Below the pieces are notes generated by a model, which saw only the letters and a program-made list of their open reading frames with translations, was not told the DNA's origin and made no database searches. The position numbers were made by a program, and so were the translations under genes. A stretch of 20,000 nt of DNA from an uncultured virus (IMG/VR IMGVR_UViG_3300000228_000008) (taxonomy: Duplodnaviria > Heunggongvirae > Uroviricota > Caudoviricetes), in IMG/VR virus record IMGVR_UViG_3300000228_000008, one strand, 5' to 3'. How positions within the stretch are numbered: the stretch's first letter is position 1; each line of letters starts with the position of its first letter. Positions 1 through 17,600 of this stretch are shown here, one piece after another.

Positions 1-857
1 TGTCAGAATTAAGTACTTATTTTTCTATTATGTTTGATTATTCTATGGAGGATGTAACTTTTACAAGAGATGAGATAAACGTATTTCATTATATATTTAT
101 AGAGTCTATAACATTTTATGAGGTTTTTTACATTAGCCAACAAGAAACTATTCAAGTGCATGAAAGAAAATTTAATATTTCTGTAGGAAGTTATGGAACA
201 TACCCGATTCATGGTTTTGAAAGCACAGGTTCTCTTCTATATCCAAACCCTTTCGAGTTATCTACAACTTATCAGTATGATACTACTACTGGTATGGTTG
301 GAATGCCGAATAGTACTGGTGACTTTACTTCTGTAGGTAAAACACAAAATAGATTTTGTAAAAAAATACAAATAGATGGAGAGGAACTTAGTGGCAGTTA
401 CTTAGATTTTGAGAAAAAGCAGAAAGAGTTGTACGATGAAGTAGCTTTATCTGGAAGTAGTGAAATAATATTTAAATCCGTAGCAGACGTAGTTTTTAAA
501 GAAGAATTAGAAAACATAGGTATAACTGATTTACCAAAATGGGAATGTAAATTTATAAATAATACAATGAAACCATTAAAAGCTGTACAAGAAAAACAAT
601 TGTATCAACCACCTGGGCATCAGTGGACTTGGGACACAGGAAGTTTTGAAGATCGTATTGGATGTGGTGGAGGTGGTATTGGTCAATGGAAAGCTGTATT
701 CTATTATGTATTTGGCAGAATATCAGGTATGTACGGTTATGTTGGTGAGAGGGACATATTCGATTTGTATTCATATGGTCTATCCGACGTTTTAACTAGA
801 ATGGCAGATCCAGCTGAGGCGGTAAGAGATCTATTAGGTGTTGGAGAGTACGATTAG
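1..857 (+). CDS. Hypothetical protein, probably virion-associated; 5' end lies at or just outside the window edge
   Basis: The frame of the 30..857 ORF is open back to position 3 (SELSTYFSI-M). The window starts 'tg tca gaa', compatible with an ATG one base outside it. Ends at TAG 855-857. No recognisable family. Confidence 0.7.
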   Translation, partial: SELSTYFSIMFDYSMEDVTFTRDEINVFHYIFIESITFYEVFYISQQETIQVHERKFNISVGSYGTYPIHGFESTGSLLYPNPFELSTTYQYDTTTGMVGMPNSTGDFTSVGKTQNRFCKKIQIDGEELSGSYLDFEKKQKELYDEVALSGSSEIIFKSVADVVFKEELENIGITDLPKWECKFINNTMKPLKAVQEKQLYQPPGHQWTWDTGSFEDRIGCGGGGIGQWKAVFYYVFGRISGMYGYVGERDIFDLYSYGLSDVLTRMADPAEAVRDLLGVGEYD

Positions 858-878
858 GAGGTTTAAGCAGTTTTCAAA

Positions 879-999
879 TAACTTATAAAAACTATAAAAA
901 CTTATTGACAACGGAGGAATCTGTAAATATAGTGAAACTACGTACTAAGAAGCAGGAACTTTACTTAAAATTTATGACTTATTAAGTTTTTATAAGTTA
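879..999. repeat. Perfect 15-bp inverted repeat pair (879-893 / 985-999) with an extra tandem copy (893-904 pairs with 983-994)
   Basis: Read directly from the sequence. Confidence 0.95.
905..933 (+). promoter_or_regulatory. Sigma70-type promoter
   Basis: TTGACA (905-910), 17-bp spacer, TATAGT (928-933), upstream of the 1015 CDS. Confidence 0.7.
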
Positions 1000-1014
1000 A
1001 AGGAACCAGGGTAT

Positions 1015-1413
1015 ATGTTTGAAATAACTTGCGAAGAATGCAGTAGTCTTATAACTATGGATTACCAAGCATCATTAGAGGATTACCTATATAAAGTAAA
1101 TTATGTGACAAACGATATTACTTATATTACAGATACAGCTATAAAAGCATATATGATATATAAATGTATTGGTTGTGGTAAAGTTTTTAAATACACTTTA
1201 AAAGATTTAGAATTAAAATTGAGGCAATCAATACATAAAGATGTTAGAAAATATAGAAAAATTTATGTTTTTAGAAATATATTAAATCCTGCTAATGTTG
1301 ATCCAGACAATGGATTACTTTTTTGTGGTATTTGTGATGGTGTTGATAATCTTGGTAATTGCTATACAGATATTGTAAATATATGTCCTTTTGCGTGTAA
1401 AAATGAAGCATAA
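1015..1413 (+). CDS. Cys-rich, putative zinc-binding protein (132 aa)
   Basis: CEEC and CIGC pairs, plus a C-terminal CGIC...C...C...C cluster. Stop overlaps the start of the next gene. Confidence 0.8.
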   Translation: MFEITCEECSSLITMDYQASLEDYLYKVNYVTNDITYITDTAIKAYMIYKCIGCGKVFKYTLKDLELKLRQSIHKDVRKYRKIYVFRNILNPANVDPDNGLLFCGICDGVDNLGNCYTDIVNICPFACKNEA

Positions 1414-4400
1414 TTTTTTAAGAGATAGTAAGTCTATCAGTAATTCTACACTGTGTAGATACGACTCTATGAGTGGATACAGTACGGATTTTTCTAAAAA
1501 TGGTGATGTAAACGGTTGGGATATATACAATAACATTTACATGTACGGTTGTTGGAATAATTTAATATTCGGATCATCACATTTAGATGAATGTTATATT
1601 GGTAGAACTACCGTTTTTTTATCTGTAAATGCAGAAGAATATTTTTTTATAGAGTTTATTTTAAAAGTAGTAGATGAAAATCCAAACAAAGTTGTAAAAG
1701 GTTTAAATAAAGGTAAAATAATGTGGTCAAGAACTGACGATAATGACTGGTCAGAAGAAAGAACCATTGAATTCAATATTACTGGTGTGGGTACTTGGGA
1801 ATATTATAAATTGAACCTTGGGCCGTACAAATGGTGGCAAGGTGATATAAATAATTTACGTTTTTATCCTTTTATTGATGGTAATAAGAAAGACAAATTT
1901 TTTTTGAAGTACTTAAGAATCACTTCAGAAGATTTTTGGATGTGTACAAATACAAATTGTTCTTTTTACCAGTTGTATAATCATCCTTGTTGTGGAGCTG
2001 GTAGTAGGCCATATTGTGAAGCTACGGTTAAAAAGAAAAATTACTCTTTTGTACAAGGTGTAAGTAGCGAATTATTAATAGATATAGATAGTTATGGTAT
2101 TGAACCAATAGAACTTGGTAATAATTTACTAGTGTCTGGGAACGATGTAGCTAAAATAATAGGTAATAATATTAGTACTATAAACATAGGAGGCTACTCG
2201 TTTGCTGAAATTAATTATACTGATGAAAATGTGATACGTATTTATAGTGGTACAAATGGTAGTAATAGTAGTATCGTAATACATTACTCTAAAGCAGCAG
2301 AAGAGCTTGGGTTTTTTAGTGTGAATAAAGAAGCCATATACACATATGTTAGTGGTACAATACAAGCGTCTGGGTTTGATTACGCAAGTACCAAACTATT
2401 ACAAACTTTTGAGATAAATTCTTTAATAAATGGAAGTAATGATGTGGCCTATGTGCATAATCCTTCACAGTATTCTGTGGAAGGCGGCAGAAGAGACTTT
2501 AATGAAATTGGTACTTCAAAGCTTATATCATCTATTGAAGATGTTACTATATTTGTGTCGTTCGATAATACAGGTAAGACTATTGTAGATTTGTCAAAAA
2601 GAATAGATAACAATGGTAAATTAACGCATTTTTGGGTTTATGGTGTCTTAAATCCTGGGGCTTCCTTGAAAATTTTAAGGCCTCATAATGATGGCAGTTT
2701 TTCAGTTATACATACAATACTTTTGCCTACAAAGGAAGCTAACACTTTATATACGTCAAAACCGTTAGTTTCTCAAGTGACCTGTGATGTTTTAGTTACT
2801 AAAGGTGACTTATTAGGTATATATAATGCTAATTTATATGTTGGTCAGACAGCCACAAAACTGCCAGACGCAACGTTTATTCAATTTTCTGGAGATATTT
2901 ACGGAAGAGTTTATGAAAGTGTTTCACATTCTTATGGTGTTGGTGGGTTTGCTATGTATGCAAGAGGTGACTTAAAGCAGACTAACACAATATTAGATAT
3001 TGATTTAGGTAATCGATTGAATATTTCAGAATTTGTAGTATCAGGAGAAGAGTTAGAAAATTATTATGAATTTAATATAGCCTCTTGTTTAGATATTACT
3101 TGGGAAGTTGATTTATTTAATGAAACACACAACCATTCAGGCTACTATGCAATCACTCTCGATAGGTGGTATGACACACATAATAATATTTATTATGGTA
3201 AAGAATGCTTAGATGATTTAATTATAACTGCCGATAATGGTAAACAAGGTGATGTATATTCTCAAAATAATGGATTAGCTACTCAAGGACATCATGCATA
3301 TTTTTATGTAAACGGTGATTTTGAATGGCCTTATAGTACAGTGTGTACAGGCCTTACAGAATACTGCGGAAATAAAGTCCCAACTTCAGGAGTACTTAAT
3401 TACATATCGGATCCAATAGCTTTTACTTTACTTTTTCCAGAAGAATACGAGTATGATATTCATAAAAGTATTATGTATTTTAAAGAGGAAAAAAATTTTA
3501 GAAATATAGCGTTATCTACTTATGGTGGTTTTTATAATTATTTAGGTAATGCTGACTCTATTGAATATAATTTAATTCCAAATTATAAATATATTTATTT
3601 AAACGGCGTTAAGTACTCTCCAGAAGATAGTGACAACATAAAAAGATATTTATTTAAAAATCCAGCAGTTTCTACTATTTATGCACAAGATTATGATGAT
3701 TTAGAGAAGACAGCTGATCATATAGCTACATATTTTGTATATTGGTCCATCTTAGGGCATGAGTTCGACCCAATATCTTGTAAAGGTTTTAGGATTTATT
3801 GTGATAGTCATTATAGTACAAAAATTACAGAAATAGAAGTATATTCTAAGATTAAAAGTGATACTTCTATGGTGGATAATACAGTATTACACTTTTCTGA
3901 TTATGGTGATAAATGGCGATCAGCAGGGTTTAAAAAAATAGACGATAAAACTACATCTGCTTTTATTGGAGGTACCCCTGGATACTTTAGAGTGACTTTA
4001 GAATCTCATACAACATTTAATATGCGAGAGATTTATGTAACAACAACTGAACAAACATATTTAGAAAATAGTACAGTTTTATTAACTGATACAAAAAATG
4101 GAGAAATAGGAGAAAGTACAGCAGTAGAAATAAAAAACACATATAATAAGGCATTTGATTTATCAATAGATATACCAAGAGACTTGGTTAGTAATAAAAA
4201 TATAGTTTTTTGGAATAAATTAAATTCTTCTAGTGATCTTGAAAACTCAGAACTAGGTCCTTCGTGCCTACTATATAAAAACAAAGATCATATAATAACT
4301 TATATTGAAGGGCAGTGCGCTAATAATTGTTATACATATGGTTTAGTTAATTTAGTTAACAATAAGGATGCCTATTACTCTTTAAATACTTTCGATTGGA

Positions 4401-7400
4401 ATTATTTTGGTACTGTGAGTTCTGGTGTTGCTTTATCTTTTTCAAATAAAGCATATTTACATAGATATAAATTTTATAGTTCTTTATCACCAGTATCAAG
4501 TAAATATTGGAGACTTCAAATAGTATCATCTGATAGAGTCATAGTGGTGAATGATATCATAGCTACTTATTTAGATACTAGGGTAAAAATTGATAGAATT
4601 CTTTTATCTGAAACTATTCCAAGTAATTATTTAAATTACATAGACAATGATGGATCCAATATACCTAGCTATTACACGTTTAAAGATTCATTTATTGATG
4701 GTACTTGGTATGAATTCTCAGTATCTGGTTCTAGTAGTCCAGAATCCTATGTTGTAAATAATGAATATTTATACATCAACAGTAAAGGAGGCACAAGTAA
4801 TTTAAGTACATATAGTTTTAGTAACTCTAATAACTTTGAATTTACAATAAAATACTATTTTACTGTAGCCACTACAACTATTTATGCAAACACAAGTTGT
4901 AACTTCGAATTTTATAATGCAGCAGATAAACTTTTTAGTATTAGTTGGACAGTTACTGCTAATGTAGACACTTCAAGTTGTGCTTCTACACTGCACAAAT
5001 TAAGTATTTTTGTTTTGACATCTAATGTGTATAATAATACAACTTTAGGTTGTTATTTAAATGTTAATACACTAAATACAATAGTACTTAGAAAAGCAGG
5101 TACAAAAGTCTCTTTATATTTAGGTGAAAATGTTTTTATAACAACTTTTGATTTAGGTTACGACTATAACATTACTTCTTTTTATTATAGAACTACATCA
5201 TCTGTAACAACATCAAGGGTATATCATGTAAGTTTTAAATATAGAGTGTTGCTATTTGGTGAATATTGGGTTGGGATTAGATTACACAATAATGATCCAA
5301 TAGATAGAATAAATTTAATTTCTACTGGCAATGCTTTGACTATGAAAGTATTAACAAGTAATGATAATAGCTTATATAGTATATGGGAAGTTGTGTCTCT
5401 AATAAGAGAAGATCTGCATATATATTTCAGTGTCGATTTAGAAAAACGCCATAGTTTAGCCATAATTAGAAATTATGGCTCAGGTAATCTTTTTTATGTT
5501 GCATTGACATTGAATACAGTTTTTTCAAATACGTCTGGCGATATTTATAACGCAGAATTTAATTCTACAAGTAGCGATTGTAGATGGGTAGGTGTAAAAA
5601 TAAATTGTTCTGATAATATATTAAAGTCTATTGAAAAGTTAGGCATATATACTGATATTACTATTCCTTTTTGTAAAGATGGTGGGTTAAATAACACTTG
5701 GATTTCATTACCAAATACATTGACTAGTTATATGCCAATAAAAAATGTGGCTTTAAATGCTACAGTTTCTGGTACTAGTTTTTATAAAGATCATATACCA
5801 GAAAGATCAGTTAATGGTGAATCATCAAAATTTGGGCCAGAATTTTGCTGGGCCTATAAAAAAGATACAAACCCTGTATTATACATAGAGTTTGGTGGGG
5901 AGTTTAATGTAGGGCATTTTATAATGCATAATGGGTACTCTTCTGATATTAATTCAGGGTATAATAAAAGCTATAAACTTAGTTTAGACAACACATCTTC
6001 TGGAGATAGTAGAACTTGGGTATTAGTATATACAGCTTCTAATATAACAGATTCTTCTACTAGAAAACACTCGTTTGATTATGTGCATGCAAGAAGAGCT
6101 AAATTAGAAATTACCTCTTTTGATTATATTGAAGTTATTGAAGACATTTCTGATAGTACATATTTAGTTGTGTATATAGGATTTCTGCGTGAAATAGAAA
6201 TATTAGCTAAGGAAAATACTACTATTATAAGTAGTGAGGACTATCCTATTGTTTGTGTAGATTTAAGAAGTAGTTTCAACGTAGTAGATGTTAAATTATA
6301 CAACCCTTTTCAACAAGACGACAGTCTTATAACAGATTCTTCTAATAATATGTGGGATAATTCAAGTGAATTTATAAGTTACTCAGATAATATAACGTCT
6401 GATCCTACTAAAGCCACTTTTAGCAGAGGTCAGGATTATACTACTGAGTATGAAAATAATTTAAATACGGGGGATTTGAAGTACTCATATGAGTATACTA
6501 TAGTTACTGCTTTATTTTTATCAAAAGGTCATCATTATATTGGTTGGGCTGCTTATTATCCAGAAAATGTAGAGGAAATTAGTATAGATTTAATAGGAGA
6601 TGAAGATTTACATATATATGCTACAAATTATGGTACTGGTTGGAAAACACAACAGCATGAGTTTTTTACTACTTATGATGGCTATTATACAATATACGCA
6701 AGACAGAATATAAGCAGTAGTTACTCATGGGGGGTTTCAAATATTAAAATATATAGGTTATATGATTTAACTAGATGGGTAGCTATTGTACGAGATACTG
6801 CTACTAACTATGCGTATAATTTTGTTGACGATATGTCTTCTCCTGATTTCTTAGATAAAATTGGGATTTATAGTTCAGATGTACTAATTCCATCAGAGTA
6901 TTGGTGGTGGTGGGGTTCAGATCTTTCTTGTTTATCGAATGACAGTGCAACTGTGAAGGTAGGAACAAGGTCGTTAAAAGTAGTATATCCAGCATCGTCT
7001 GATATTGATACATTACGTTTAATTGAAGCAGATCATTTTGGTAAAGATTTATTGTGGTCTATGTTAGATGCTTTTCATTTTTATTTATACGTTGATAATA
7101 TAGATAATTTAGATACTACTTTTGGCAAAATAGTATTAGGATCTGTGGACAGTACTTCTTCTGATTTTTATTACTCTTGGGATATAGCAACAATTCCACT
7201 AGAGACTGGTTGGAATGATATTAATTTAAATTTTTATAACTATTCAAGTGTATATCCAACATCAAAAGGTATAAATGGTGGTTTTCTAGATACTATTTTA
7301 TGTTTTAAAATTAACGAACGAAATATTACCTCTTTATACATACAATATAGGGGCAGGGGTTCAGAAGTTACTTTATTTTTCGATGATTTTAGAATAAGAC

Positions 7401-8206
7401 GTAATACATTTGATACATCTGTTATGTATTCAAAAGGGTTGTGTTTAACATATAATGATTATTTAATGATGCCTTTATCTAACATAAACTTAGATAAGGG
7501 GTCAATTGAGTTTCATGTTAAAATGGGGGTAGACTCTTTAGGAAGAGACTCTTTTGGAGAACTACACGCAGCTACTTTATTTACATTGAGTAGTAATTCA
7601 AATGATATAGTGTCACTAAGGATTAAACCAGGAAATTGGTTCGAGGTTTTTGCAGGTAATATACGTAATCAAAGTTTATTTAATACAACAGAATTATTAG
7701 CACGTACTTTTGTTGGTATTGGTAGTATAGTACATATAGGTCTTGTTTGGAGTAATGATGGTAGTGGGACTGTTGATGGTTACACAGTAAAGTTATTTAT
7801 AAATGGAGTACTTACTTTGAATAGCATCTCTGGTTGGAAAGTATCGGATACAAAGTTATCTTTTTTTAAATTGGGTGGAGGAATATCGCAGACTTCTCAA
7901 GTACATGCTAATCACAGCGCATTTATTTTCGAAAATGTTAAAGTATATAATTATTGTAAAGACTCTTTTTTAATTTATACCCAAGATATAGGTGGCGAGC
8001 ATTTATATACACCAGAAAATTTTATAGAAATTTCAAATGATAACATAAATTTCGTGTCGGCTGGATCAGAAAATCTCCCAATGATTTTTGAACAAGTACC
8101 AAGCCAAGAATCAAAAACTATATATATTAGAACCAATAAAATTAAAAAATTAAAATCAACAGGTAGTAATGCCCAAATTACAGTAGACTGGTTAACTACC
8201 GTTTAA
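1403..8206 (+). CDS. Giant (~2267 aa) multidomain virion/tail protein with carbohydrate-binding-type modules (F5/8 type C/discoidin-like, C-terminal LamG/ConA-like)
   Basis: Long ORF; ATG 1403 preferred over TTG 1391. Discoidin-like segment NVALNATVSG...LYIEFG...YKLSLD...ARRAKLEIT...LREIEI (~5744-6203). LamG-like segment KGSIEFHVK...HIGLVW...VKLFING...FENVKVYN (~7426-7952). N-terminal WQGDINNLRFYP jelly-roll-type motif. Confidence 0.8.
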   Translation: MKHNFLRDSKSISNSTLCRYDSMSGYSTDFSKNGDVNGWDIYNNIYMYGCWNNLIFGSSHLDECYIGRTTVFLSVNAEEYFFIEFILKVVDENPNKVVKGLNKGKIMWSRTDDNDWSEERTIEFNITGVGTWEYYKLNLGPYKWWQGDINNLRFYPFIDGNKKDKFFLKYLRITSEDFWMCTNTNCSFYQLYNHPCCGAGSRPYCEATVKKKNYSFVQGVSSELLIDIDSYGIEPIELGNNLLVSGNDVAKIIGNNISTINIGGYSFAEINYTDENVIRIYSGTNGSNSSIVIHYSKAAEELGFFSVNKEAIYTYVSGTIQASGFDYASTKLLQTFEINSLINGSNDVAYVHNPSQYSVEGGRRDFNEIGTSKLISSIEDVTIFVSFDNTGKTIVDLSKRIDNNGKLTHFWVYGVLNPGASLKILRPHNDGSFSVIHTILLPTKEANTLYTSKPLVSQVTCDVLVTKGDLLGIYNANLYVGQTATKLPDATFIQFSGDIYGRVYESVSHSYGVGGFAMYARGDLKQTNTILDIDLGNRLNISEFVVSGEELENYYEFNIASCLDITWEVDLFNETHNHSGYYAITLDRWYDTHNNIYYGKECLDDLIITADNGKQGDVYSQNNGLATQGHHAYFYVNGDFEWPYSTVCTGLTEYCGNKVPTSGVLNYISDPIAFTLLFPEEYEYDIHKSIMYFKEEKNFRNIALSTYGGFYNYLGNADSIEYNLIPNYKYIYLNGVKYSPEDSDNIKRYLFKNPAVSTIYAQDYDDLEKTADHIATYFVYWSILGHEFDPISCKGFRIYCDSHYSTKITEIEVYSKIKSDTSMVDNTVLHFSDYGDKWRSAGFKKIDDKTTSAFIGGTPGYFRVTLESHTTFNMREIYVTTTEQTYLENSTVLLTDTKNGEIGESTAVEIKNTYNKAFDLSIDIPRDLVSNKNIVFWNKLNSSSDLENSELGPSCLLYKNKDHIITYIEGQCANNCYTYGLVNLVNNKDAYYSLNTFDWNYFGTVSSGVALSFSNKAYLHRYKFYSSLSPVSSKYWRLQIVSSDRVIVVNDIIATYLDTRVKIDRILLSETIPSNYLNYIDNDGSNIPSYYTFKDSFIDGTWYEFSVSGSSSPESYVVNNEYLYINSKGGTSNLSTYSFSNSNNFEFTIKYYFTVATTTIYANTSCNFEFYNAADKLFSISWTVTANVDTSSCASTLHKLSIFVLTSNVYNNTTLGCYLNVNTLNTIVLRKAGTKVSLYLGENVFITTFDLGYDYNITSFYYRTTSSVTTSRVYHVSFKYRVLLFGEYWVGIRLHNNDPIDRINLISTGNALTMKVLTSNDNSLYSIWEVVSLIREDLHIYFSVDLEKRHSLAIIRNYGSGNLFYVALTLNTVFSNTSGDIYNAEFNSTSSDCRWVGVKINCSDNILKSIEKLGIYTDITIPFCKDGGLNNTWISLPNTLTSYMPIKNVALNATVSGTSFYKDHIPERSVNGESSKFGPEFCWAYKKDTNPVLYIEFGGEFNVGHFIMHNGYSSDINSGYNKSYKLSLDNTSSGDSRTWVLVYTASNITDSSTRKHSFDYVHARRAKLEITSFDYIEVIEDISDSTYLVVYIGFLREIEILAKENTTIISSEDYPIVCVDLRSSFNVVDVKLYNPFQQDDSLITDSSNNMWDNSSEFISYSDNITSDPTKATFSRGQDYTTEYENNLNTGDLKYSYEYTIVTALFLSKGHHYIGWAAYYPENVEEISIDLIGDEDLHIYATNYGTGWKTQQHEFFTTYDGYYTIYARQNISSSYSWGVSNIKIYRLYDLTRWVAIVRDTATNYAYNFVDDMSSPDFLDKIGIYSSDVLIPSEYWWWWGSDLSCLSNDSATVKVGTRSLKVVYPASSDIDTLRLIEADHFGKDLLWSMLDAFHFYLYVDNIDNLDTTFGKIVLGSVDSTSSDFYYSWDIATIPLETGWNDINLNFYNYSSVYPTSKGINGGFLDTILCFKINERNITSLYIQYRGRGSEVTLFFDDFRIRRNTFDTSVMYSKGLCLTYNDYLMMPLSNINLDKGSIEFHVKMGVDSLGRDSFGELHAATLFTLSSNSNDIVSLRIKPGNWFEVFAGNIRNQSLFNTTELLARTFVGIGSIVHIGLVWSNDGSGTVDGYTVKLFINGVLTLNSISGWKVSDTKLSFFKLGGGISQTSQVHANHSAFIFENVKVYNYCKDSFLIYTQDIGGEHLYTPENFIEISNDNINFVSAGSENLPMIFEQVPSQESKTIYIRTNKIKKLKSTGSNAQITVDWLTTV

Positions 8207-8230
8207 TTAAAGTAGACTAAGGTTAAATTT

Positions 8231-11200: not shown

Positions 11201-11377
11201 AATTCTATAGATACACCATATGTTTTAAAAGCTATCATGGCACCGGCTGTGTGTATATCTAATATTTTACCACACCAAAGTAAACCTTTATTTATACGAT
11301 CTAATATTCCTCAAGGGTCTGAAGCATACCAAACGGTAACAAGGATAAAAGTTTGGTGGGATGTTGAGACAGTCTAA
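8231..11377 (+). CDS. Large (1048 aa) putative virion protein: N-terminal discoidin-like domain plus two beta-propeller-like regions
   Basis: N-terminal LTDG...LDIDLG...PRYVRC...INELQV. Propeller-like blades such as AFDHTTGRLYV, EMYDVVSDTW, DNYDGFWAY, DNGCWVID and DLVGGFYA. Confidence 0.75.
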   Translation: MTKYNMINSSYFTSNTTSGTGNRNLTATELYSLTDGVLDTIGVTVTGSDILCLDIDLGYRLKIDSILLYASDLTKLPNINFYFKNYETDSYIICSKSSSINSYVGTTPSPSAPRYVRCTVSGTDIGINELQVLNDDNIIAFGVDGNTTSTMLESAPEGIYGDIQTIEIYNNTDSDIPANAYVCVDYTGKIDDTYIDISANEGGPFYNLADGDFTETWRTSGTHNGTTSVTGVVGALLCIDHVDEICKEYLGKLPNILCTYPKKPFGLYSSTAFDHTTGRLYVAFWQGTSSTGSAIDLWYYTAATNIWVFKGTLVSPFWHTSYISMCCDNNGVYFLTTISPYTTIYILKHDPSGALGNLVTLSTFTISDYYPQSTCFYIIADFKGNIWIKSNTHVQAWTKYFFKFVISTLVITSMSNIFYSAPSNTVGALCILAYNIDSDRIYSMNTENSSYTNAYNIEMYDVVSDTWVIQYLNYGIITGVNTNYDVFFCCHNEVLYFHSANYGGIIYIYDLTTGIKSTVPTGFYVKTGISNKVIALDPLTLEDTYSLLVIGGYTDDYSVFGYNNPFITDTLRICAYTSPIIALEDPNSASYFSIETSSTPGITNVSKHREIQDGVIEVRSSTTSPLPVEAVFWSSHHLNYINNARIDCNTLVTAYTRTAQYNLNLACSMSFCRQTTNITMVYSVTYYPTKPFFIRYDILGNTLVSLLSTYDFGNITYMSCDNYDGFWAYSPGTTTLHHADHNFVLKASVFVLGFRGLCNENLSGGAWYTSSVSKSLVHIDYNCNTIVARTLLDPYEVCETLDNGCWVIDLLDDLYGKTIKRYSTSGELVTTIKVTKLFKKITADLVGGFYALSFDSLQCLDHYDKEGNLTMSIKDIYNETHISGGPNGVILYSSTLLRVRYVSLQTKNIVWTKFNTDLTYPNGSFAPPILATFRMEDQQKYTNVAKHVPLSYDPLWNLSTGTLPWKDVDKDGYFLIKKKYHQVRLTLSSSNSIDTPYVLKAIMAPAVCISNILPHQSKPLFIRSNIPQGSEAYQTVTRIKVWWDVETV

Positions 11378-11401
11378 GTTAAATATTTAGAGGTACTTGT
11401 A

Positions 11402-13510
11402 ATGTCTAATTATACACCTCCTAATGGCAATAATATATTATTTAATTTTACAGATGATGGTTATGTAGCCCCTAATTTTTTAAGGATTGAATTTAGTTCT
11501 TATAATACTACAGATCTTCTAGCGTATGTAGAAGTAGTTCAACTTTTTAATGAGGAAACTTATACTTATGTAAAAAATTGTAGAAAAATAGTTGTAGGTT
11601 ATACAGATACAGGTATTCAGACTTTATCATTACCTTGTCTATTTGGAGGTATTAGAGATCTTAAATTTACTGCAACAGCCGTACTAGCAATTACTAGTAC
11701 TTTTATAGATTTAGAAACTTATATATATGGTAATTTTGAGTATTTAGATTTTTTGGCTGCTGTAAAAGCCAAGTACATGCTTTTTACTGATATATCAGCA
11801 GGCTCATATGCAGTGTCTCCTGCTGATTTAAATAGTTTTTTAAAAGTTATAGAGATATCCGATATATCTTCTCACATAATAGGTCAGTTATATAAAGGAC
11901 AGACAGATTTACAAACAGTATTTGATAAAATAACTTTTAAAAGTAGAGGTAATATTAATGCTTTAATTAGAGGGTTAGCTAAAAAAGATTTACTAGGTGC
12001 TATAACTAGTTTTCATACGCGTGATTTAAGTGCTGCAATATTATCTGGTAATTTTAAAGTTTATAGAAATTTAAATGCTTTATTATACTGCGTATCTCCA
12101 AGTAATTTACAAGCTTTTTTACATGGTTACGACACAGCTAATTTAAATGTTACATCTACAGTAGGCTATCAATTAAATGATCTTCAGTCTAGTTTATATG
12201 CTATATATCCTAAAGATATACAGGCGTATTTAAATTGTATGAAGGCACAAAATATACATTGTGATTTACACGCAACTGTTTCAAGTGTGTCAATTTTAGA
12301 TTTACTTTCTTATATAGGTACAATTGAAGCATTTTCATTATCTGCTACTATAACTGCTACAGGAAAATATTTAGATTTGTTGGCTCGTATAGTACCAAAA
12401 GTTATAAACATAAAAAGAATACTTTATATTTCACTGTATGAACATTCTGATTTAAAAGCTACAATAAACTATAATTGTCTAAAATCAAAGTACATAGATT
12501 TAAATGTTCATTTGTATCCTATTAAAAAATTAGACTTGAAAGCGTATTTAATAGGTTGGTACGGTAATTATGTAGATAATATGTTAGAATTAAAGGCATA
12601 TATTAATGTATCAGATTATATACATGTGAATTACATGAACTGCTCTGCAGATGTTTATCCAGGAGAGCCGTTATTTGTAACTCATAATATAATAAGTAAT
12701 AAAAATTCTATTATGTATAAAGTTACAGATACGTTTTTGATTATACAGAAAACTAAAGCAATGCTTGAAGCATTTATAATTGGTATCCTACCTTCATATG
12801 ATATTAAAGCCACTCTTACAGTAAAACCATTAGCTAATTTTACGACAGTACCAAGCTGGGTAAATCCAAAAACTTTAGAAGTTGTTATAAATTTAGATAG
12901 ATTTGAAGAACGTTGGAGAAGATTCGTAGAAATGATATTCTTTACTAATGATGACTCAGGTTATTATTTTTTCTACGTTCCTGGGGAAAATAATGTTTAT
13001 AAAGTAGATAGAAACCGCACTTGGAAAATACAGATAACAGGGTTTACGCATGATGCTACTAATATATATTCAAGAATAAAAGTAAAGAAGCTATTTGTTT
13101 TTAATTTATCAAATTATAACACATTTGATGAGGCATTAAGTGATTTAATAGATAGAGTGTCTATTAGTAGAAAATTTGATTTAGGTGCCTACTTAAATAC
13201 TTTTACATTTCCTTCTAAAGATATAGAAGCAGTAATTTATGTCAAAAAGATTCGCCATTGGTCTAAAGCACTAACAGCAATATCTAAAGTTTTTGGCACT
13301 TCTGTAAAAGTTTTGCCGGCAGAGATAACTCCAGAGCTATTTCATGGTGATAATAATCTAACTGGACTAATAGTAGGTAAATCGTATGAACCTCCAGTAT
13401 CTTCAGACATACATTTCAATTTTAGTGATACTTCTTACATACAACCAGGTTCGTATAATAATATGAATTGGACGTATAAACAAGCTGAAGTTTTTTGGAA
13501 GGATGTATAA
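11402..13510 (+). CDS. 702-aa repeat protein (about 30 'D-L-x-A-x-I/L' units), putative fibre/beta-solenoid structural protein
   Basis: GAGG RBS upstream. Recurrent units include DLLAYV, DLETYI, DLNSFL, DLSAAI, NLQAFL, DIQAYL, DLHATV, DLKATI, DLKAYL and DIKATL, often 12-15 aa apart. Confidence 0.8.
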   Translation: MSNYTPPNGNNILFNFTDDGYVAPNFLRIEFSSYNTTDLLAYVEVVQLFNEETYTYVKNCRKIVVGYTDTGIQTLSLPCLFGGIRDLKFTATAVLAITSTFIDLETYIYGNFEYLDFLAAVKAKYMLFTDISAGSYAVSPADLNSFLKVIEISDISSHIIGQLYKGQTDLQTVFDKITFKSRGNINALIRGLAKKDLLGAITSFHTRDLSAAILSGNFKVYRNLNALLYCVSPSNLQAFLHGYDTANLNVTSTVGYQLNDLQSSLYAIYPKDIQAYLNCMKAQNIHCDLHATVSSVSILDLLSYIGTIEAFSLSATITATGKYLDLLARIVPKVINIKRILYISLYEHSDLKATINYNCLKSKYIDLNVHLYPIKKLDLKAYLIGWYGNYVDNMLELKAYINVSDYIHVNYMNCSADVYPGEPLFVTHNIISNKNSIMYKVTDTFLIIQKTKAMLEAFIIGILPSYDIKATLTVKPLANFTTVPSWVNPKTLEVVINLDRFEERWRRFVEMIFFTNDDSGYYFFYVPGENNVYKVDRNRTWKIQITGFTHDATNIYSRIKVKKLFVFNLSNYNTFDEALSDLIDRVSISRKFDLGAYLNTFTFPSKDIEAVIYVKKIRHWSKALTAISKVFGTSVKVLPAEITPELFHGDNNLTGLIVGKSYEPPVSSDIHFNFSDTSYIQPGSYNNMNWTYKQAEVFWKDV

Positions 13511-13512
13511 TT

Positions 13513-15138
13513 ATGAGCTTATTATTTTTTGACGGATTTAAAAACTATACTTTCTTACCACTAAAGTGGGATGAGTGTACGTACAATTGTTGTTTGTATA
13601 TAAAAGGATCTTCTGGCAGGCAGGGTGGTAATGTACTTGCTGCTACTACAAATTATTCTGAAATACTACTTGATTTTCTACAAAAAAATTTACCGGAGGA
13701 TACAGATGAGATAATAATAGGATTTGCTCAAAAACGTCTGATAAATTCTACAGATAATTTAGTAATAAGCTTTTGCTATGATGATATTATACAAAGTAAT
13801 ATACTAGTTAGTAGTACAGGAGTATTCTGGTATACAACAAATATATACAATAGTATAGGAAGAAATCAAGTTACACTACTTAATACATGGCATTACATAG
13901 AAGCGAAAATAAAAATTCACGACACACTAGGAACAGTAATTATAAAGGTTGATGAAGTTACAGTACTAAATTTAACAAATTTAAATACCTCTACAGTTTC
14001 ACCACTAGTTATAAATAACATAAAATTTAATACTATTTCTAAATCTTTAACAGCTTTAGATTTTATGTATATAGAAGATTTGTATATGACAAATACTTTA
14101 GGAGATACTAATAATTCTTTTTTAGGTAATTGTAAAGTATCTCATCTATCTCCTGGAGCAAATGGGTCTTTTAATCAGTTTACCCCTTCACCAACTTATT
14201 CTGGTACTGCTAATTATGCTATAGTTAATGATGGTACTTATATAGGCAGTAGTACTACCTATAATGGTACTTTTTATGAGTATGCTGGATTAGATGATGG
14301 TGGGTATACTTGTCACGATAATGTTAATTTTGTATTTGATAATACTTCTACAGGTATTCCTGTAAGTAATGTGATGCGTGTAGGTAAGGGGACTAATTAT
14401 ATATGGTTTCGTTTTTCTAATGTTAGTGTGCCTAAGAATGCTAAAATATCAACAGCATATTTAGATATAAATAACATTTCCTTACCATCTTATAGTTGTA
14501 CGGTTGAAATTAGAGCACAAAAAAGTTTTTTTGGGGTTTCTCAAATAATTTCAAGTAGTGATTTATTTAGTAGAACGCTTACGTATACAGTACATAAACC
14601 TGGAAATGTAAATTTTAATTCTGTCAACATAGCACCAGTAATACAAGAGTTAGTTGATCAGGTAGGTTGGGTAGAGGACAATAACAGTATTTTGATTATT
14701 ATCAAGTTTATACAGTTGGTTAGTAGTTACGTGTATAATCAGTATTCATCATATGAGGCTAATAACGATCCATATCATATAAATTCTCCAAAATTTTTCA
14801 TTGAGTGGTCTCTACCGTGGGAAAAAGACTTAAAATATATAACTGCCAATACTGTAGATAAAAAAGATAGTTATTTATTAACTATGTCTTCAGGTATTAC
14901 AGGTGTAAAAGCTGTAAGCTCTTCAGTAGTTGCTAAACGAGATTACGATACAGATGTATATTTAAGAGGTGTAATGGTTAGTGGTACCACTTATAATAAT
15001 AACGCAGTGTTTTTACCAAAGACACGTTATAATAACAATATGTTTATTTTCGACAAAGATCCCATTACTAATGATGCTTGGTTAAATACATCTTTAATCA
15101 GTAATGAATTTGGGTTTATTACTACAGTTTCTGGATAA
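13513..15138 (+). CDS. Putative tail protein (541 aa): lectin/LamG-like N-terminal domain with an inserted DNRLRE-like module
   Basis: ATG 13513 (MSLLFFDGF) follows AAGGA. Motifs: WHYIEAKIKI...IKVDEV; YIEDLY; WFRFSNVSVPKNAKISTAYL...IAPVIQELV...PKFFIEW; C-terminal DPITNDAW...EFG. Confidence 0.7.
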   Translation: MSLLFFDGFKNYTFLPLKWDECTYNCCLYIKGSSGRQGGNVLAATTNYSEILLDFLQKNLPEDTDEIIIGFAQKRLINSTDNLVISFCYDDIIQSNILVSSTGVFWYTTNIYNSIGRNQVTLLNTWHYIEAKIKIHDTLGTVIIKVDEVTVLNLTNLNTSTVSPLVINNIKFNTISKSLTALDFMYIEDLYMTNTLGDTNNSFLGNCKVSHLSPGANGSFNQFTPSPTYSGTANYAIVNDGTYIGSSTTYNGTFYEYAGLDDGGYTCHDNVNFVFDNTSTGIPVSNVMRVGKGTNYIWFRFSNVSVPKNAKISTAYLDINNISLPSYSCTVEIRAQKSFFGVSQIISSSDLFSRTLTYTVHKPGNVNFNSVNIAPVIQELVDQVGWVEDNNSILIIIKFIQLVSSYVYNQYSSYEANNDPYHINSPKFFIEWSLPWEKDLKYITANTVDKKDSYLLTMSSGITGVKAVSSSVVAKRDYDTDVYLRGVMVSGTTYNNNAVFLPKTRYNNNMFIFDKDPITNDAWLNTSLISNEFGFITTVSG

Positions 15139-15140
15139 CT

Positions 15141-15434
15141 ATGTCAGAAATAAAAATATCCAGTCATGTAGTAGATGTTTTACATAAATATGTAGATAAT
15201 ATTGGAAGTACATATAATTTTTCTGGTAGTGTTACTGAAGAAGGTATTGGTGAATTATGTGTATTGTATGCGTATAACTCAACAACTAAAAAATTAGTAG
15301 GTAAGACATTGTCAGAAAATATTGGGCATTTTTTATTACCTTCTACGATAAGTGGTAGTTGTTTTATAGTGTGTTTTTCTAATGATGCTAGTTACAACAA
15401 CTTGATAGCTAAACAAGTAATTCCGTATACATAG
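15141..15434 (+). CDS. Small (97 aa) tail-associated protein, prealbumin/carboxypeptidase-regulatory-like beta sandwich
   Basis: Tightly packed between neighbours. Alignable by eye to the C-terminal ~75 aa of the 630-aa protein. Confidence 0.75.
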   Translation: MSEIKISSHVVDVLHKYVDNIGSTYNFSGSVTEEGIGELCVLYAYNSTTKKLVGKTLSENIGHFLLPSTISGSCFIVCFSNDASYNNLIAKQVIPYT

Positions 15435-15442
15435 GAAATAGT

Positions 15443-17335
15443 ATGAGTTTATCTGGGTGGGAAAGTTCAAATAGATTACAATTTTCTATATCTAATGGGT
15501 ATATTCATGATTATACATCTGTAGTACCAATTTTATTTAGGCTGTCTTCAAATACAGGTTCAAGTAATACAGATATAACCTTTGTTTTTACTAATATGGA
15601 AGAGTCTGGAAGTAGCTATATGAATAGAAAGAAGGTAGCTTTTTCACAACTAGTGAATGGTGTAGAAGTAGAATTAAGGGCAGAGTTAGATATGTGGGAT
15701 CATGCCAATAAAAAGGCTATTTTTTGGGTAGAACCTCTGGAACTGTCTTCAGAATATATCAATGTTTTTTACTTTTATTATAACAAGGCAAAAGCAAGTA
15801 ATGTTACTTACATTTTAGAAGCGTCTGATATAACTAACGGTTCATCTTTTATATGGGATACTAAGTTTACTTCTGTACATCATTTTAATCCTTATTTTGG
15901 CTATATCAATTCCACAAATACAAATGGCTCGGTTATTAGTTTAAATAATGTTACGTCGTCTTTATGTAGTTTAGGCGGACATGCATTAACGTTTAGTAGC
16001 TCAACTAGCTACGCTGATTTAGGTAACTATACTAAATATAATTACGGTACAACAGCACATACATTAATTTTTGGAGCTATAAACTCAGGGAATATACTTT
16101 TTTCTAAAGGGCTTTACTCAGATTGTACCACAACACTATATTATCAAGAAACACCAACACTAATTAATGACTCATTTGACGATGATTTTGTAGGACCAGT
16201 TGGGACTATCCCTGATATATGTTTATGGACTGTTAGAGTTGGTAATCCATTACAAAATGCTGGCTCTTTAGAGTTTTCACAGGCGTTAGATGAGAGATTA
16301 CGTTCTAATTTTTATGTTGGTGGTTCAGGTACACTAGTTACTGTAAACTTTAATATAGTAGGTGGAGAACTAACTTCAGGATGGTTATTAGGCCTACGTG
16401 TTAGACTTTTAGGGTTTACTTACGATTATTTAATACAGTTTACACCATCCGGTAGTAATATTGTTATTAGTTTTTTAAGAGTGTCAAGTGATACTTATAC
16501 TGTTTTGGAGTCTGTTGGAATAACAACACTTACAGCAGCTGGTTTTATCGGCACTTTTAAAGCCTCTATTAGTGGCACCTCTTTATGTTTGTCTTGTTAT
16601 TACGATGGTTCTTGGAGAACTTTTACTTGTATTACTGTACCAAGTACATTAGCCTATGGTTATATAGAAATAGATAAAAAACAAAGTACTTCAAGTAATT
16701 TAACTAAATTTTACATATCTAATTATAGGTCTAACTATGAAAATTCTTTTTTTAGACGTTCTTCTAAAAATAGCAATGTTCTTTCTCTTGAAAGTCGTAT
16801 AAATAATCAGAAACGTTTTTTAGAAATACCAGAATTCATTTTAAATTCTGCTTGGTCTTCATACTCTTTTGGTGTAGCTTCTGAAATACTAACAGCAAAA
16901 GCAGTAGTAAGTGAGAGTAATTCAGGACACTTTAGTGGTATTTTTGAAGGCACACAAACTAATACTTTATCAGTTATTTTAGGGGATAGTGTTTCTGGTT
17001 TTATTGGTAAAATTTCAGAAATATTTTTTTTCAAAACCCAGCAAAATGAACACACTATATTTTTAATTACTAAAAGTTTAGAAGACTCTTTAATAAGCAT
17101 TAGTAGATATTTTTTAAGAGGTTATACAACTATAGAAAATAGACCATTTAGTACAACAGTACTTGCTTATGACAAGGATACTGGTGATTTATTATCTACT
17201 GCAGTTTCAAAAGATATAGATGGTTATTATTACATGGAGGTACCTATAAAAAATAATTATTTTATTGTAGGTTTGGGTTCTACAATGTACAATAATAAAA
17301 TTTTAAGTAATGTTACACCACAAATTATTTTTTAG
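15443..17335 (+). CDS. DUF2341-like plus LamG-like domain protein (630 aa), putative tail/receptor-binding protein
   Basis: N-terminal GW..R...I...PIL..L...EL..ELD.WD....A.FWV....L......FYFYY and IWD..F.SVHHF are DUF2341-like. ALTFSSSTSY and FIGKISEI are LamG-like. AGGA RBS upstream. Confidence 0.75.
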   Translation: MSLSGWESSNRLQFSISNGYIHDYTSVVPILFRLSSNTGSSNTDITFVFTNMEESGSSYMNRKKVAFSQLVNGVEVELRAELDMWDHANKKAIFWVEPLELSSEYINVFYFYYNKAKASNVTYILEASDITNGSSFIWDTKFTSVHHFNPYFGYINSTNTNGSVISLNNVTSSLCSLGGHALTFSSSTSYADLGNYTKYNYGTTAHTLIFGAINSGNILFSKGLYSDCTTTLYYQETPTLINDSFDDDFVGPVGTIPDICLWTVRVGNPLQNAGSLEFSQALDERLRSNFYVGGSGTLVTVNFNIVGGELTSGWLLGLRVRLLGFTYDYLIQFTPSGSNIVISFLRVSSDTYTVLESVGITTLTAAGFIGTFKASISGTSLCLSCYYDGSWRTFTCITVPSTLAYGYIEIDKKQSTSSNLTKFYISNYRSNYENSFFRRSSKNSNVLSLESRINNQKRFLEIPEFILNSAWSSYSFGVASEILTAKAVVSESNSGHFSGIFEGTQTNTLSVILGDSVSGFIGKISEIFFFKTQQNEHTIFLITKSLEDSLISISRYFLRGYTTIENRPFSTTVLAYDKDTGDLLSTAVSKDIDGYYYMEVPIKNNYFIVGLGSTMYNNKILSNVTPQIIF

Positions 17336-17364
17336 TTGACATGTCGTCCATATTGAGTTATAAT
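17336..17364 (+). promoter_or_regulatory. Perfect-consensus sigma70 promoter for the dnaN-hyp-recA operon
   Basis: TTGACA (17336-17341), 17 bp, TATAAT (17359-17364), immediately after the upstream stop codon. Confidence 0.9.
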
Positions 17365-17385
17365 TATTATTAATTCAATAAAAGG

Positions 17386-17581
17386 TTAGTTGATAGTAAA
17401 CAAATCATTAACTATTAAAAAACAATGTTATTAGCGCACAAGATAGAATTAAGACCGAATCCTGTTCCAGTCCGACACGATTGAGCGGACTTAACTGCAC
17501 AGAAGAGATTTGTAAGACCACTTGTGGCAGAGTTGTTGACGCTGTGAATAACTATAACGAAAGTTATGATTTTACAATCGG
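17386..17581 (+). mobile_element. Internally deleted IS607/IS200-605-superfamily (TnpB) mini-element
   Basis: Bounded by GG at 17384-85 and 17580-81. Imperfect inverted ends: GATAGTAAACAAATCATTAACT versus the right end's reverse complement GATTGTAAAATCATAACT. Contains a TnpB-like N-terminus and an omegaRNA-like scaffold. Excision restores AAAGGAGttattATG. Confidence 0.7.
17425..17484 (+). pseudogene. tnpB: tnpB 5' fragment (MLLAHKIELRPN-PVPVRHD*)
   Basis: The first 12 codons match the typical TnpB N-terminus (M-x-x-A-H/Y-K-x-x-L-x-P-N, helix-turn-helix OrfB_IS605 region). The similarity then stops. The match is short. Confidence 0.65.
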
Positions 17582-17600
17582 AGTTATTATGGAATTTATT
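17461..17600 (+). ncRNA. Putative TnpB omegaRNA (reRNA) scaffold plus flanking guide
   Basis: Stems: AGTCCG/CGGACT (17469-74/17486-91); CACAG/CTGTG (17498-502/17542-46) enclosing GTAAGACC and a CCA-CTTG-TGG hairpin; ATAAC-GAAA-GTTAT GNRA hairpin (17554-67). The layout parallels the CCTG...GTAAGACC...TGAAGCAGGAA pattern of tnpB 3' ends. Confidence 0.55.

Follow-up and report, generated by a model that had tools for sequence, protein, structure and literature searches.

Two gene-less insertions in ribosome-binding sites of a phage genome, one of them probably a deleted IS607-family element that keeps its omegaRNA module

IS607-family insertion sequences (ISs) have no terminal inverted repeats and do not duplicate their target; all mapped insertions are at GG, and GG is also found at the transposon termini (available text of PMC6188088). 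The same text describes subterminal inverted repeats and short direct repeats at the ends of IS607. In C. botulinum, the IS607 transposase (TnpA) strictly requires GG, the omegaRNA scaffold ends in ..UCGG, the target-adjacent motif (TAM) is TGGG, and self and target differ at position -3; also, about 40 bp of the left end and 60 bp of the right end are enough for the excision of a mini-IS (available text of bioRxiv 10.1101/2023.11.20.567912). For 23 IS607 TnpBs, the TAM was AGGAG in 18/22 strains and GAGGG in 4/22 (available text of PMC11061315; summarised in PMC13565253). Here we describe two short insertions in a 20,000-nt stretch of an uncultured virus of the Caudoviricetes (IMG/VR record IMGVR_UViG_3300000228_000008); we call this whole stretch the window. 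Insert 1 lies ahead of a gene for a Cys-rich protein and insert 2 lies ahead of a dnaN-like gene, for the sliding clamp of DNA polymerase (Table 1). We think it probable that both are non-autonomous mobile elements that inserted independently and recently at a GG in a ribosome-binding site (RBS), in the same orientation as the genes, and that insert 2 is a deletion derivative of an IS607 element.

In the window's chain of open reading frames (ORFs), only two gaps are longer than 30 nt, and the remaining gaps are 24, 24, 8, and 2 nt or are overlaps. At site 1, TAGGAGG ends at 861 and is followed by the 149 nt of insert 1 (862-1010) and then by GTAT-ATG, with the start codon at 1015. The insertion is after the GG at 860-861, with a cut that is ambiguous by 3 nt because AGG recurs at 1008-1010. 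At site 2, AAAAGG ends at 17385 and is followed by the 196 nt of insert 2 (17386-17581, ending in ..AATCGG) and then by AGTTATT-ATG, with the start codon at 17589.

The relatives of this virus lack both segments. The only relatives that we found are uncultivated viral contigs from IMG/VR (70-228 kb, with 49-65% protein identity). (A query with the dnaN-like protein alone returned no relative; a query with an alignment recovered them.) At site 1, the distance from stop to start in the relatives is just 10-13 nt (4 loci with 3 distinct sequences: TAATGAGGTTATAATG, TAGGAGGTTTACGTATG, and TAATGAGGTAATAAATG). At site 2, where 5 loci give 3 different sequences, every relative has TTGACA-17-TATAxT directly after the upstream stop, and the leaders are 44-47 nt and end in aaaaGGAGttattATG, aaaGGAGtatttATG, or gaaGGAGttactATG, with the common form (A)AGGAGT.A.TATG. 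Removing 17386-17581 from the window gives TAAAAGGAGTTATTATG, a 17-mer that is identical to that of three of these loci (L017-L019).

Empty alleles are also found in more closely related strains. Parts of the window are present in 11 public sequencing runs, which are labeled as soil, biofilm, or cave metagenomes (none is recorded as RNA). We aligned the Logan contigs (not the reads) of four of these runs (X1, X4, X5, and X6) to the window at 85% likeness or above. In X4, three contigs (depth 21.5; the shorter flank is 74 nt) run directly from 858 to 1008, skipping 149 nt; this joint slides by 3 nt to give the exact absence of 862-1010, with the sequence TAGGAGG|GTATATG. In X5 and in X6, one contig (depth ~6) joins 17372 to 17580 with 14 other letters, TTAATTAAATAAAA, in between, which are a variant of the native leader that leads straight into GGAGTTATT. 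A second contig in each of these runs (depth ~2.5) joins 17385 to 17587 with the 6 letters AGTTAT in between, so the empty allele of site 2 is AAAAGG|AGTTAT. Among the joints listed, the empty site 1 is in X4 only and the empty site 2 is in X5 and X6 only, so the two insertions segregate independently.

Overall, 862-1010 and 17386-17581 are confirmed to be extra DNA. A preliminary description of the window, made from its sequence alone, had proposed much of this, and its observations hold: it had predicted that deleting the two segments would give TAGGAGG-GTAT-ATG at site 1 and would rejoin AAAGGAG to the dnaN-like start at site 2, that the orthologous loci would have these short junctions, and that there would be no other gap of more than 30 bp. 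It had also viewed the inserts as different and independent elements, and their sequences do differ (they have one motif of 12-14 nt in common), with empty alleles in different runs. Finally, it had noted that the right ends of the inserts leave purine-rich RBSs, which are AAAGGAACCAGGG (site 1) and TCGGAG (site 2), before the start codons.

Could the gaps instead be ancestral regulatory regions that were deleted in the relatives and in the sister strains? Presence or absence alone does not give a direction, and excision of an IS607 element would yield a precise loss. But three more distant lineages and the closer strains all lack the inserts, the native promoter and RBS around insert 2 are intact, and insert 2 is demonstrably derived from a transposon (see below). 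We consider ancestral regions to be very improbable.

Insert 2 contains the beginning of a tnpB gene. A sensitive blastn comparison of insert 2 to phage records gave 6 weak matches, and the two best are at the start codons of tnpB-like "transposase" genes (364-365 aa) from two Vibrio phages (91% over 34 nt with E = 1e-3, and 84% over 43 nt with E = 5e-3). The back-translated N-terminal pattern MLLAHKIExRP matches 97 stretches in bacterial contigs (one genome per species), and we fetched 80 of these, which we call the family loci. They are mostly from Gammaproteobacteria (Endozoicomonas, Thiomargarita, Chromatium, Methylococcales, Thiotrichaceae, and Halobeggiatoa). Among the matches whose ORF ends inside the locus, 48 are ORFs of 350-399 aa that start with MLLAHKIELRPT. 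In 52/80 loci, a second ORF, the C-terminus of a TnpA, is directly upstream. For one representative pair, Pfam identifies Resolvase and MerR domains in the upstream ORF and OrfB_IS605, Cas12f1-like TNB, and HTH_OrfB_IS605 domains in the long ORF, so this is the arrangement of a serine TnpA with TnpB that defines IS607. In other words, insert 2 appears to derive from a tnpB of the OrfB_IS605 type which, in its family, adjoins a serine transposase.

The ends of insert 2 also fit with IS607. GG is present at the target and at the terminus, with no target-site duplication (AAAAGG|...AATCGG|AG, with the empty allele AAAAGG|AGTTAT), a repeat search of 17300-17650 found no terminal inverted repeats at the ends of 17386-17581, and full-length homology links the right end to the family's 3' module (see below). 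The similarity of the stub ORF to TnpB fades past about codon 14, which places the deletion joint at about 17465-17469. As far as can be told from its sequence, insert 2 is a 39-bp left end and ~14 codons of tnpB, followed by a deletion of ~1.05 kb and then the entire omegaRNA scaffold and right end. Because there is no intact tnpA or tnpB (insert 2 has just a stub ORF of 19 codons, and neither a resolvase nor an OrfB domain was detected in the window), it would be a non-autonomous derivative and not a complete IS.

A few other observations concern insert 2. Exact searches of IMG/VR with a 21-mer from the P1 hairpin and with a 20-mer from the stub ORF gave no match. The relative G001 has no copy of insert 2 or of insert 1, and a weak match at G001:165522 is coding sequence. 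Two contigs from X4 match the window across the whole left end of insert 2, as far as 17429, just beyond the ATG of the stub, and continue into unrelated sequence, GACAAAGCCTCACGCG..., which is neither the window's stub nor the start of a family tnpB and may be a variant of the element at the same site. In one family locus (L035, from Thiomargarita sp.), a tnpB-only element (GG|TTGACAACTATCAC...) is nested in the first codons of another family tnpB: it is inserted after ..CACAAGG, ~130 nt upstream of the pattern match, and its own tnpB is cut to 16 codons (VLLAHKIELRPTPVAS*), much like the window's stub.

The right part of insert 2 corresponds to an omegaRNA. In the family loci, the 3' module includes the last ~29 codons of tnpB and another ~50-60 nt of conserved sequence; it ends in ..TTTTAGTAGCGG, beyond which the copies diverge. 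The window's 17469-17581 aligns with this module throughout. We built a covariance model, R1, from 17 family modules (alignment A3), excluding the window, and searched the whole window with filters off. R1 matches 17469-17581 on the + strand with 60.7 bits (E = 1.9e-15) across model positions 1-140 of 140, and the match ends exactly at the right boundary given in the preliminary description. The next-best match in the window has 9.5 bits. In a 19-row alignment, which was fitted to R1 and is hence biased towards its structure, 95.6% of the cells are paired, versus 32-48% if the partners are slid by 1-3 columns; both partners vary in 14 of the 22 pairs, and none of 500 shuffles attains any of the measures of covariation. 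The window's row keeps 21 of the 22 pairs, which is the same as for the full-length members L026 and L098. It has compensatory pairs of its own in the long-range helix (CGAUUG at 17478-83 with CAAUCG at 17575-80, where the family has CGUUAC and GUAGCG). By eye, a 5' hairpin covaries as well (GUCCG at 17470-74 with CGGAC at 17486-90; GGUCGAG and CUCGACC in the family). R1 does not include this hairpin, since it and the long-range helix together would make a pseudoknot.

So insert 2 has what is expected of an omegaRNA: a conserved scaffold, with 21/22 pairs and covariation in its family, that ends at 17581, directly before the predicted guide in the flank. Given the family's architecture, we predict that the guide position of insert 2 lies over the start codon of the dnaN-like gene. 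The preliminary description had expected an omegaRNA guide over the translation start at both sites. This stands for insert 2 and not for insert 1, which has no omegaRNA-like sequence or structure. Similarly, of the scaffold motifs that it pointed out, GTAAGACC is in the conserved part of the omegaRNA module, but GAAGCAGGAA from insert 1 matched nothing.

The omegaRNA module seems to belong to a class outside Rfam 15. At the gathering score, Rfam 15 had no matches to the window; 17300-17650 and the insert 1 gap had only chance-level matches at E ≤ 10, and 6 family loci had no match at E ≤ 0.1. RAGATH-18 in particular had no match at E ≤ 10 in 17300-17650 or at E ≤ 0.1 in the 6 family loci. When either gap is folded as a single sequence, the result is no better than for shuffled sequences (z = -0.6, -1.5, -0.5, and +0.8); the structure of the omegaRNA is visible by comparison only. 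R1 has no match in the 3' modules of the Vibrio phage elements or in most of the Thiomargarita loci that were found with the N-terminal pattern. (We tried a by-eye alignment to the Vibrio 3' module and dropped it in favor of the gammaproteobacterial family; R1 fails on the Vibrio modules.) Three loci from Vibrio phages and an IMG/VR contig (L009, L010, and L011) have a full-length TnpB behind a 66-aa MerR-HTH stub of TnpA, and share a conserved 3' region of ~90 nt that ends in ..TATCTG and that R1 does not detect.

The case for insert 1 is different, as we found no homology to tnpA, tnpB, omegaRNAs, or known ends. Its target and terminus both have GG and its empty allele is precise (AGGAGG|TTT..CCAGG|G, with the joint TAGGAGG|GTATATG). 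It has direct repeats and an inverted repeat that is subterminal, at unequal distances from the two ends, as in the description of IS607 ends (available text of PMC6188088). Neither insert has inverted repeats at its termini, as a classical miniature inverted-repeat transposable element (MITE) would. Also, the 20 kb contain 4 copies of the motif AACT(T)AT(T)AAAAA(A)(A)C, of which 3 are in insert 1 and 1 is in the left end of insert 2; shuffled sequences have a mean of 0.155 copies and a maximum of 1 (although this motif was defined post hoc). Promoters are found in the left ends of family members as well, such as GG|TTGACA-17-TATGAT in the tnpB-only copies of Thiomargarita. In X4, one contig matches insert 1 from 865 onward behind a different flank, ending in ..GGTGGAGGTA (GGAGG), and in X1 the summed depth of insert 1 at 886 is 62, or about twice the phage baseline of 29, so further copies of insert 1 exist. 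Overall, we conclude that insert 1 is a non-autonomous element that targets GG. Because its architecture and target fit with IS607 and homology is lacking, we view its membership in that family, which we assign by architecture and target, as about evenly balanced.

A serious, if less probable, alternative is that only insert 2 is an IS607 remnant and that insert 1 is a MITE of another IS family, or else a phage promoter module that is carried by recombination. Promoter-stem-loop cassettes of T4-type phages would be a parallel for the latter. Besides the lack of homology to tnpA, tnpB, the omegaRNA module, or any family locus, insert 1 has a near-consensus promoter and a perfect 15-nt inverted repeat, and the AGG at both of its junctions can be read as a 3-bp target duplication. 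Yet the inverted repeat is not terminal (it is 17 and 11 nt from the ends), the RGG target and the right end in ..AGG are as in the IS607 family, insert 1 and the left end of insert 2 have a motif of 12-14 nt in common, and GGAGG also adjoins the second copy of insert 1.

Why are both inserts in RBSs? For one multicopy member of the family, the left flank ends in GG in 30/30 copies, with A or G at -3 in 29/30, and the right ends are ..GCGG. The junctions in the window are similar: AAGG|element...TCGG|AG at site 2 and GAGG|element...CAGG|G at site 1. The nested Thiomargarita insertion is likewise after ..AAGG. The + strand of the window has 759 GGs, of which 744 are coding, 8 are inside the inserts, and 7 are non-coding. 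All 7 of these non-coding GGs are in purine tracts just 5' of start codons (at 857, 860, 1010, 8221, 11392, 15434, and 17384). Outside of the inserts, only 125 bases are non-coding, and the inserts occupy 2 of the ~5 RBS tracts. If an insertion needs GG and must not break a gene, then in a gene-packed genome with a low GC content (~30% for the window), it can persist only in an RBS tract. Furthermore, since the element ends in GG, the downstream gene regains an RBS: at site 2, the terminal GG and the flanking AG rebuild GGAG, and at site 1, the result is AGGG and AAGGA. We infer that the rebuilt RBS preserves translation and that selection, rather than targeting, explains the position of the inserts. 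The GG rule and purifying selection together would thus give a mechanism for the earlier proposal that GGs in RBSs are tolerated landing pads.

The most likely explanation is that both inserts are tolerated selfish insertions that are mobilised in trans. A serine recombinase, TnpA, encoded elsewhere, would have moved both mini-elements to GG sites in the phage. Insert 2 would have lost ~1.05 kb of its parent's tnpB, and also tnpA if the parent had one. The IS607 transposase recombines at a GG core that is common to the element's ends and the target, which would account for the GG at both junctions without a target duplication and for the precise empty allele, AAAAGG|AG. The insertions in RBS tracts would have survived because the coding sequence was spared and the site was rebuilt. 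Scarless excision of the two mini-elements would be expected to leave the joints TAGGAGGGTAT and AAAAGGAGTTATT. As side effects, insert 1 would place a strong new promoter ahead of the Cys-rich gene and a 2271-aa ORF, while insert 2 would create a 224-nt leader (from the -10 box to the clamp's start codon) with a 19-codon stub ORF and a folded omegaRNA scaffold. The native promoter, 21 nt upstream of insert 2, would transcribe the scaffold and the guide position as part of the dnaN leader. G17580, in the rebuilt GGAG, is predicted to be paired in the long-range helix, which could affect initiation.

Alternatively, the inserts might be kept because they have a function. The omegaRNA of insert 2 could be made from the dnaN promoter, the strongest in the region, and used by a TnpB that the host or another element provides in trans, or by a nuclease-dead TnpB-like repressor, to cleave or repress the empty allele in competitors or to tune dnaN, perhaps as one of a dispersed set of guides such as the preliminary description had suggested. 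That description had also considered regulatory leaders; the analysis of the 20 kb gives support to neither. A matching TnpB, if present in the infected cell, would be guided to RGG followed by the guide sequence, which is the empty allele of the sister strains; the occupied allele would have CGG instead of RGG at the TAM position. A difference at -3 between self (the right end, CGG) and non-self (the target flank, AGG) is as described for IS607 TnpB (available text of bioRxiv 10.1101/2023.11.20.567912). Also, the scaffold is structurally intact, with as many pairs as in full-length members, and the deletion that took the protein left the module whole, starting at position 1 of the model. There are coexisting empty alleles in related strains, the same communities contain many more copies of the module, and trans-acting omegaRNAs from gene-less elements of the IS605 type have been discussed (available text of 10.1101/2023.03.14.532601). 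On the other hand, there is no TnpB in the window or in the records of two relatives (G001 and G006), and the 20 kb has just one guide-bearing element. The intactness of the scaffold may reflect only that the deletion is recent, and may be uninformative because both ends are needed for transposition anyway. We consider it unlikely that the inserts are kept for a function. A more specific version, with the mini-element as a trans-acting guide by which a TnpB from the host or from the abundant other copies cleaves the empty allele in co-infecting sister phages, seems slightly less likely again. If it were true, then an essential replication gene would be the site of an RNA-guided drive (homing or marker exclusion), and several such elements would make up the dispersed guide set.

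The omegaRNA module is not limited to this site. The summed depth of the contigs at 17551 is 105, 200, 117, and 82 in X1, X4, X5, and X6, versus baselines of ~29, 17, 7, and 7. Since the depth of the module is far above the phage baseline in all four runs, it is multicopy in these communities, although the contigs do not tell whether the extra copies belong to hosts, to other phages, or to this one. A C at 17509, which changes the U-G pair of 17509-17532 to C-G, is present in four further X1 contigs. The X1 contigs break inside both insert 1 and insert 2. The nearest relatives of the module are in assemblies of Thiotrichaceae, Thiomargarita, and Halobeggiatoa. One assembly of Thiomargarita sp. 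(G004) has 60 matches to R1 in 3.2 Mb, and three other assemblies of sulfur bacteria have 1-2. In G004, many of the matches are 100-300 nt from the ends of contigs. This assembly points to a massive expansion of an IS607 subfamily, and some copies have a right-end-like ..AGTAGCGG 9 nt upstream of another tnpB start.

Several observations weigh against the view that both inserts are recently inserted mobile elements and that insert 2 derives from IS607. There is no tnpA and no full tnpB within the 20 kb window, two relatives (G001, 228 kb, and G006, 161 kb) have no match to R1, and G001 has no match to the TnpB zinc ribbon. The nearest bacterial copies share only ~70% identity with the module in the window, so we do not name a parent, a donor, or a host. 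Insert 1 has no significant similarity in phage records, G001, the 80 family loci, or Rfam; its best match in four sulfur-bacterium genomes has E = 0.016, it scores 7.7 bits against R1, and its fold is no better than those of shuffled sequences. (A 22-mer from insert 1 had 5 chance matches in metagenome contigs, all in unrelated coding sequence, so this collection does not include the contig of the window itself, and a 20-mer from its left end had none in IMG/VR.) The empty alleles of site 2 come from shallow contigs (one contig per run and joint), and Logan contigs are not reads. Finally, ATTAACTA, at 17405-12, resembles the leaders of two relatives, which would give another left boundary for insert 2. 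We set aside this boundary, at about 17420 and with a flanking ACAAT repeat, because 17386 agrees with both the GG rule and the empty alleles.

The long ORFs of the window are all on the + strand, with hardly any gaps. Upstream of the clamp gene are very large ORFs (2271, 1048, 702, 547, and 630 aa) with almost no annotation from Pfam or PHROGs. The 2271-aa ORF (1391-8206) has a sub-threshold match to the galactose-binding F5_F8_type_C_2 at residues 1476-1571 and is otherwise without a family, as are its neighbours. A megablast of the whole window against phage records gave 0 matches, and a scan of the window for tRNAs and tmRNA found none. The gene content and the viral relatives in IMG/VR show that the window is phage DNA. 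Promoter-like sites are not enriched overall (100 sites versus 120.9 ± 9.7 in shuffles), but the sole 12/12 match (17336-17364) and one of the three 11/12 matches (905-933) fall in the two gaps, on the + strand.

The contigs also show variation elsewhere in the window. The close strain in X4 leaves 6004-8004 and 11340-14674 almost uncovered, while the rest of the window has a depth of 13-20, and higher beyond 17343. The giant ORFs are strain-specific in these two regions, which take in the C-terminus of the 2271-aa ORF as well as the 547- and 702-aa ORFs; such specificity is expected of modules for host recognition. In X1, 2669-4002 has about twice the baseline depth (56-60 versus 29), with loose ends at 3053 and 3634; this part of the 2271-aa ORF is either repeated or present in another genome of the sample as well. 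Contigs from X4 and X5 omit 148 nt at 604-753, within the upstream ORF (284 aa, open at its 5' end). This length is not a multiple of 3, and the omission could be a variant allele or an artefact of assembly. A backward joint from 17769 to 15528, with 22 other letters in between, is in all four runs at a depth of 5-16, and may represent a rearranged relative or another phage that has both flanks.

Table 1. Coordinates of the two inserts, their target sites, and the surrounding genes
Feature	Position	Strand	Details
Target of site 1: stop TAG (855-857) overlapping AGGAGG, the RBS tract of the Cys-rich gene	855..861	+	
Insert 1, a putative gene-less mobile element	862..1010	+	149 bp; absent from 3 relative lineages and 3 close-strain contigs
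Left arm of the perfect 15-nt inverted repeat	879..893		Subterminal; begins 17 nt in from the left end
Tandem direct repeat, TATAAAAAC x2 (9 nt)	884..901	+	Within the motif AACT(T)ATAAAAAC (880-892, 890-901; inverted copy 986-998)
Promoter-like TTGACA-17-TATAGT, 11/12	905..933	+	Inside insert 1; faces the Cys-rich gene and, beyond it, the 2271-aa ORF
Right arm of the 15-nt inverted repeat	985..999		Ends 11 nt inside the right end
Cys-rich gene, 132 aa	1015..1413	+	3' of insert 1; kept in relatives, 49-57% identity
Native phage promoter, TTGACA-17-TATAAT, 12/12	17336..17364	+	Same place in all relatives; upstream of insert 2
Target GG of site 2, in AAAAGG, the first half of the ancestral AAAAGGAG RBS tract	17384..17385	+	
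Insert 2, a probable internally deleted IS607-family element	17386..17581	+	196 bp; left end, tnpB 5' stub, and omegaRNA module/right end
Left end of insert 2, 39 bp	17386..17424	+	Weak promoter-like TTGATA-17-TATTAA (17390-17418, by eye) and the shared motif AACTATTAAAAAAC (17410-17423)
Stub ORF, MLLAHKIELRPNPVPVRHD*, 19 codons	17425..17484	+	ATG at 17425; first 11/11 residues as in the N-terminus of the family's TnpB (MLLAHKIELRP)
omegaRNA-like scaffold, 113 nt: last tnpB codons and 3' non-coding module, ending in ..UCGG	17469..17581	+	Covariance model R1, full length
Predicted 20-nt guide position, AGTTATTATGGAATTTATTG	17582..17601	+	Would cover the RBS spacer, the start codon, and the first 4 codons of the dnaN-like gene; predicted from the family's architecture
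dnaN-like gene, DNA polymerase sliding clamp	17589..18722	+	Pfam DNA_pol3_beta domains; PHROGs phrog_947, E = 1.9e-27
RecA/UvsX-like recombinase	19287-20000		Recognised by Pfam/PHROGs

The GG rule of IS607, TnpB and its omegaRNA, the laboratory mini-IS, and gene-less elements of the IS605 type with omegaRNAs were already known. What is new is a natural protein-less derivative of IS607 that seems to have an intact omegaRNA, of a class outside Rfam 15; its location in a phage, at the start of an essential gene, where it is polymorphic among strains; and an explicit link between the GG or AG-rich target of IS607 and Shine-Dalgarno sites. We found no paper that makes this link, which is not proof of absence; the available text of PMC11061315 has 0 occurrences of "Shine-Dalgarno" or "ribosome binding". 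If our interpretation is correct, then there are natural IS607-type elements, polymorphic within populations, inside phage RBSs, and for a simple mechanistic reason: the GG core of IS607 (and its AG-rich target or TAM) coincides with the core of the Shine-Dalgarno sequence, and recombination at the GG core restores the site. With a predicted guide position that overlies the start of an essential gene of the phage, and with empty alleles in circulation, it can be tested directly whether TnpB guides act in trans between phages. Annotators of compact phage genomes may also find that long "leaders" are transposon remnants of this kind.

The closest known systems are the IS607 insertion sequences themselves (IS607 of Helicobacter pylori and the IStron of C. 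botulinum; available text of bioRxiv 10.1101/2023.11.20.567912), which have the same insertion at GG and the same GG termini. They also share the lack of terminal inverted repeats, the lack of a target duplication, scarless excision, a TnpB and an omegaRNA at the right end with a scaffold that ends in ..CGG, and a purine at -3 of the target flank versus C at the right end. Insert 2 differs in that both protein genes are gone, with ~14 + ~25 codons of tnpB left, in that it sits in a phage, and in that its omegaRNA module is not matched by Rfam 15, including RAGATH-18. As a protein-less mini-element with both ends and a guide scaffold, which would need TnpA and TnpB in trans, insert 2 also resembles the PATE-like, gene-less derivatives of IS200/IS605 (available text of bioRxiv 10.1101/2023.03.14.532601). 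Those elements have a tyrosine (HUH) TnpA, hairpin ends, and AT-rich TAMs, while insert 2 would use the serine recombinase of IS607 and its GG core. The laboratory mini-IS from the C. botulinum IStron shows that the ends of insert 2 (39 bp and the stub at the left and 113 bp at the right) and the 149 bp of insert 1 are in the size range that can be mobilised in trans (again from the available text), but the window's elements are natural, belong to another subfamily, and have a mobilisation that is predicted.

Two Vibrio phages, IBT_VpB-34 (OR712157.1) and 1.187.O (MG592553.1), have the same TnpB N-terminus, MLLAHKIEIRPT, and are also cases of IS607-type elements in phage genomes. In contrast to insert 2, they keep the full TnpB of 364-365 aa, and their 3' module is of another subclass (no match to R1 at E ≤ 0.001, with a different end, ..TATCTG). 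Lastly, if the omegaRNA of insert 2 were to act as a guide in trans, then it would resemble the free-standing homing endonucleases of T-even phages, which cause marker exclusion (available text of PMC13565253), in that a nuclease would be aimed at the empty allele of a competitor. Unlike in those phages, the specificity would be encoded by an RNA, and the nuclease would be outside the element.

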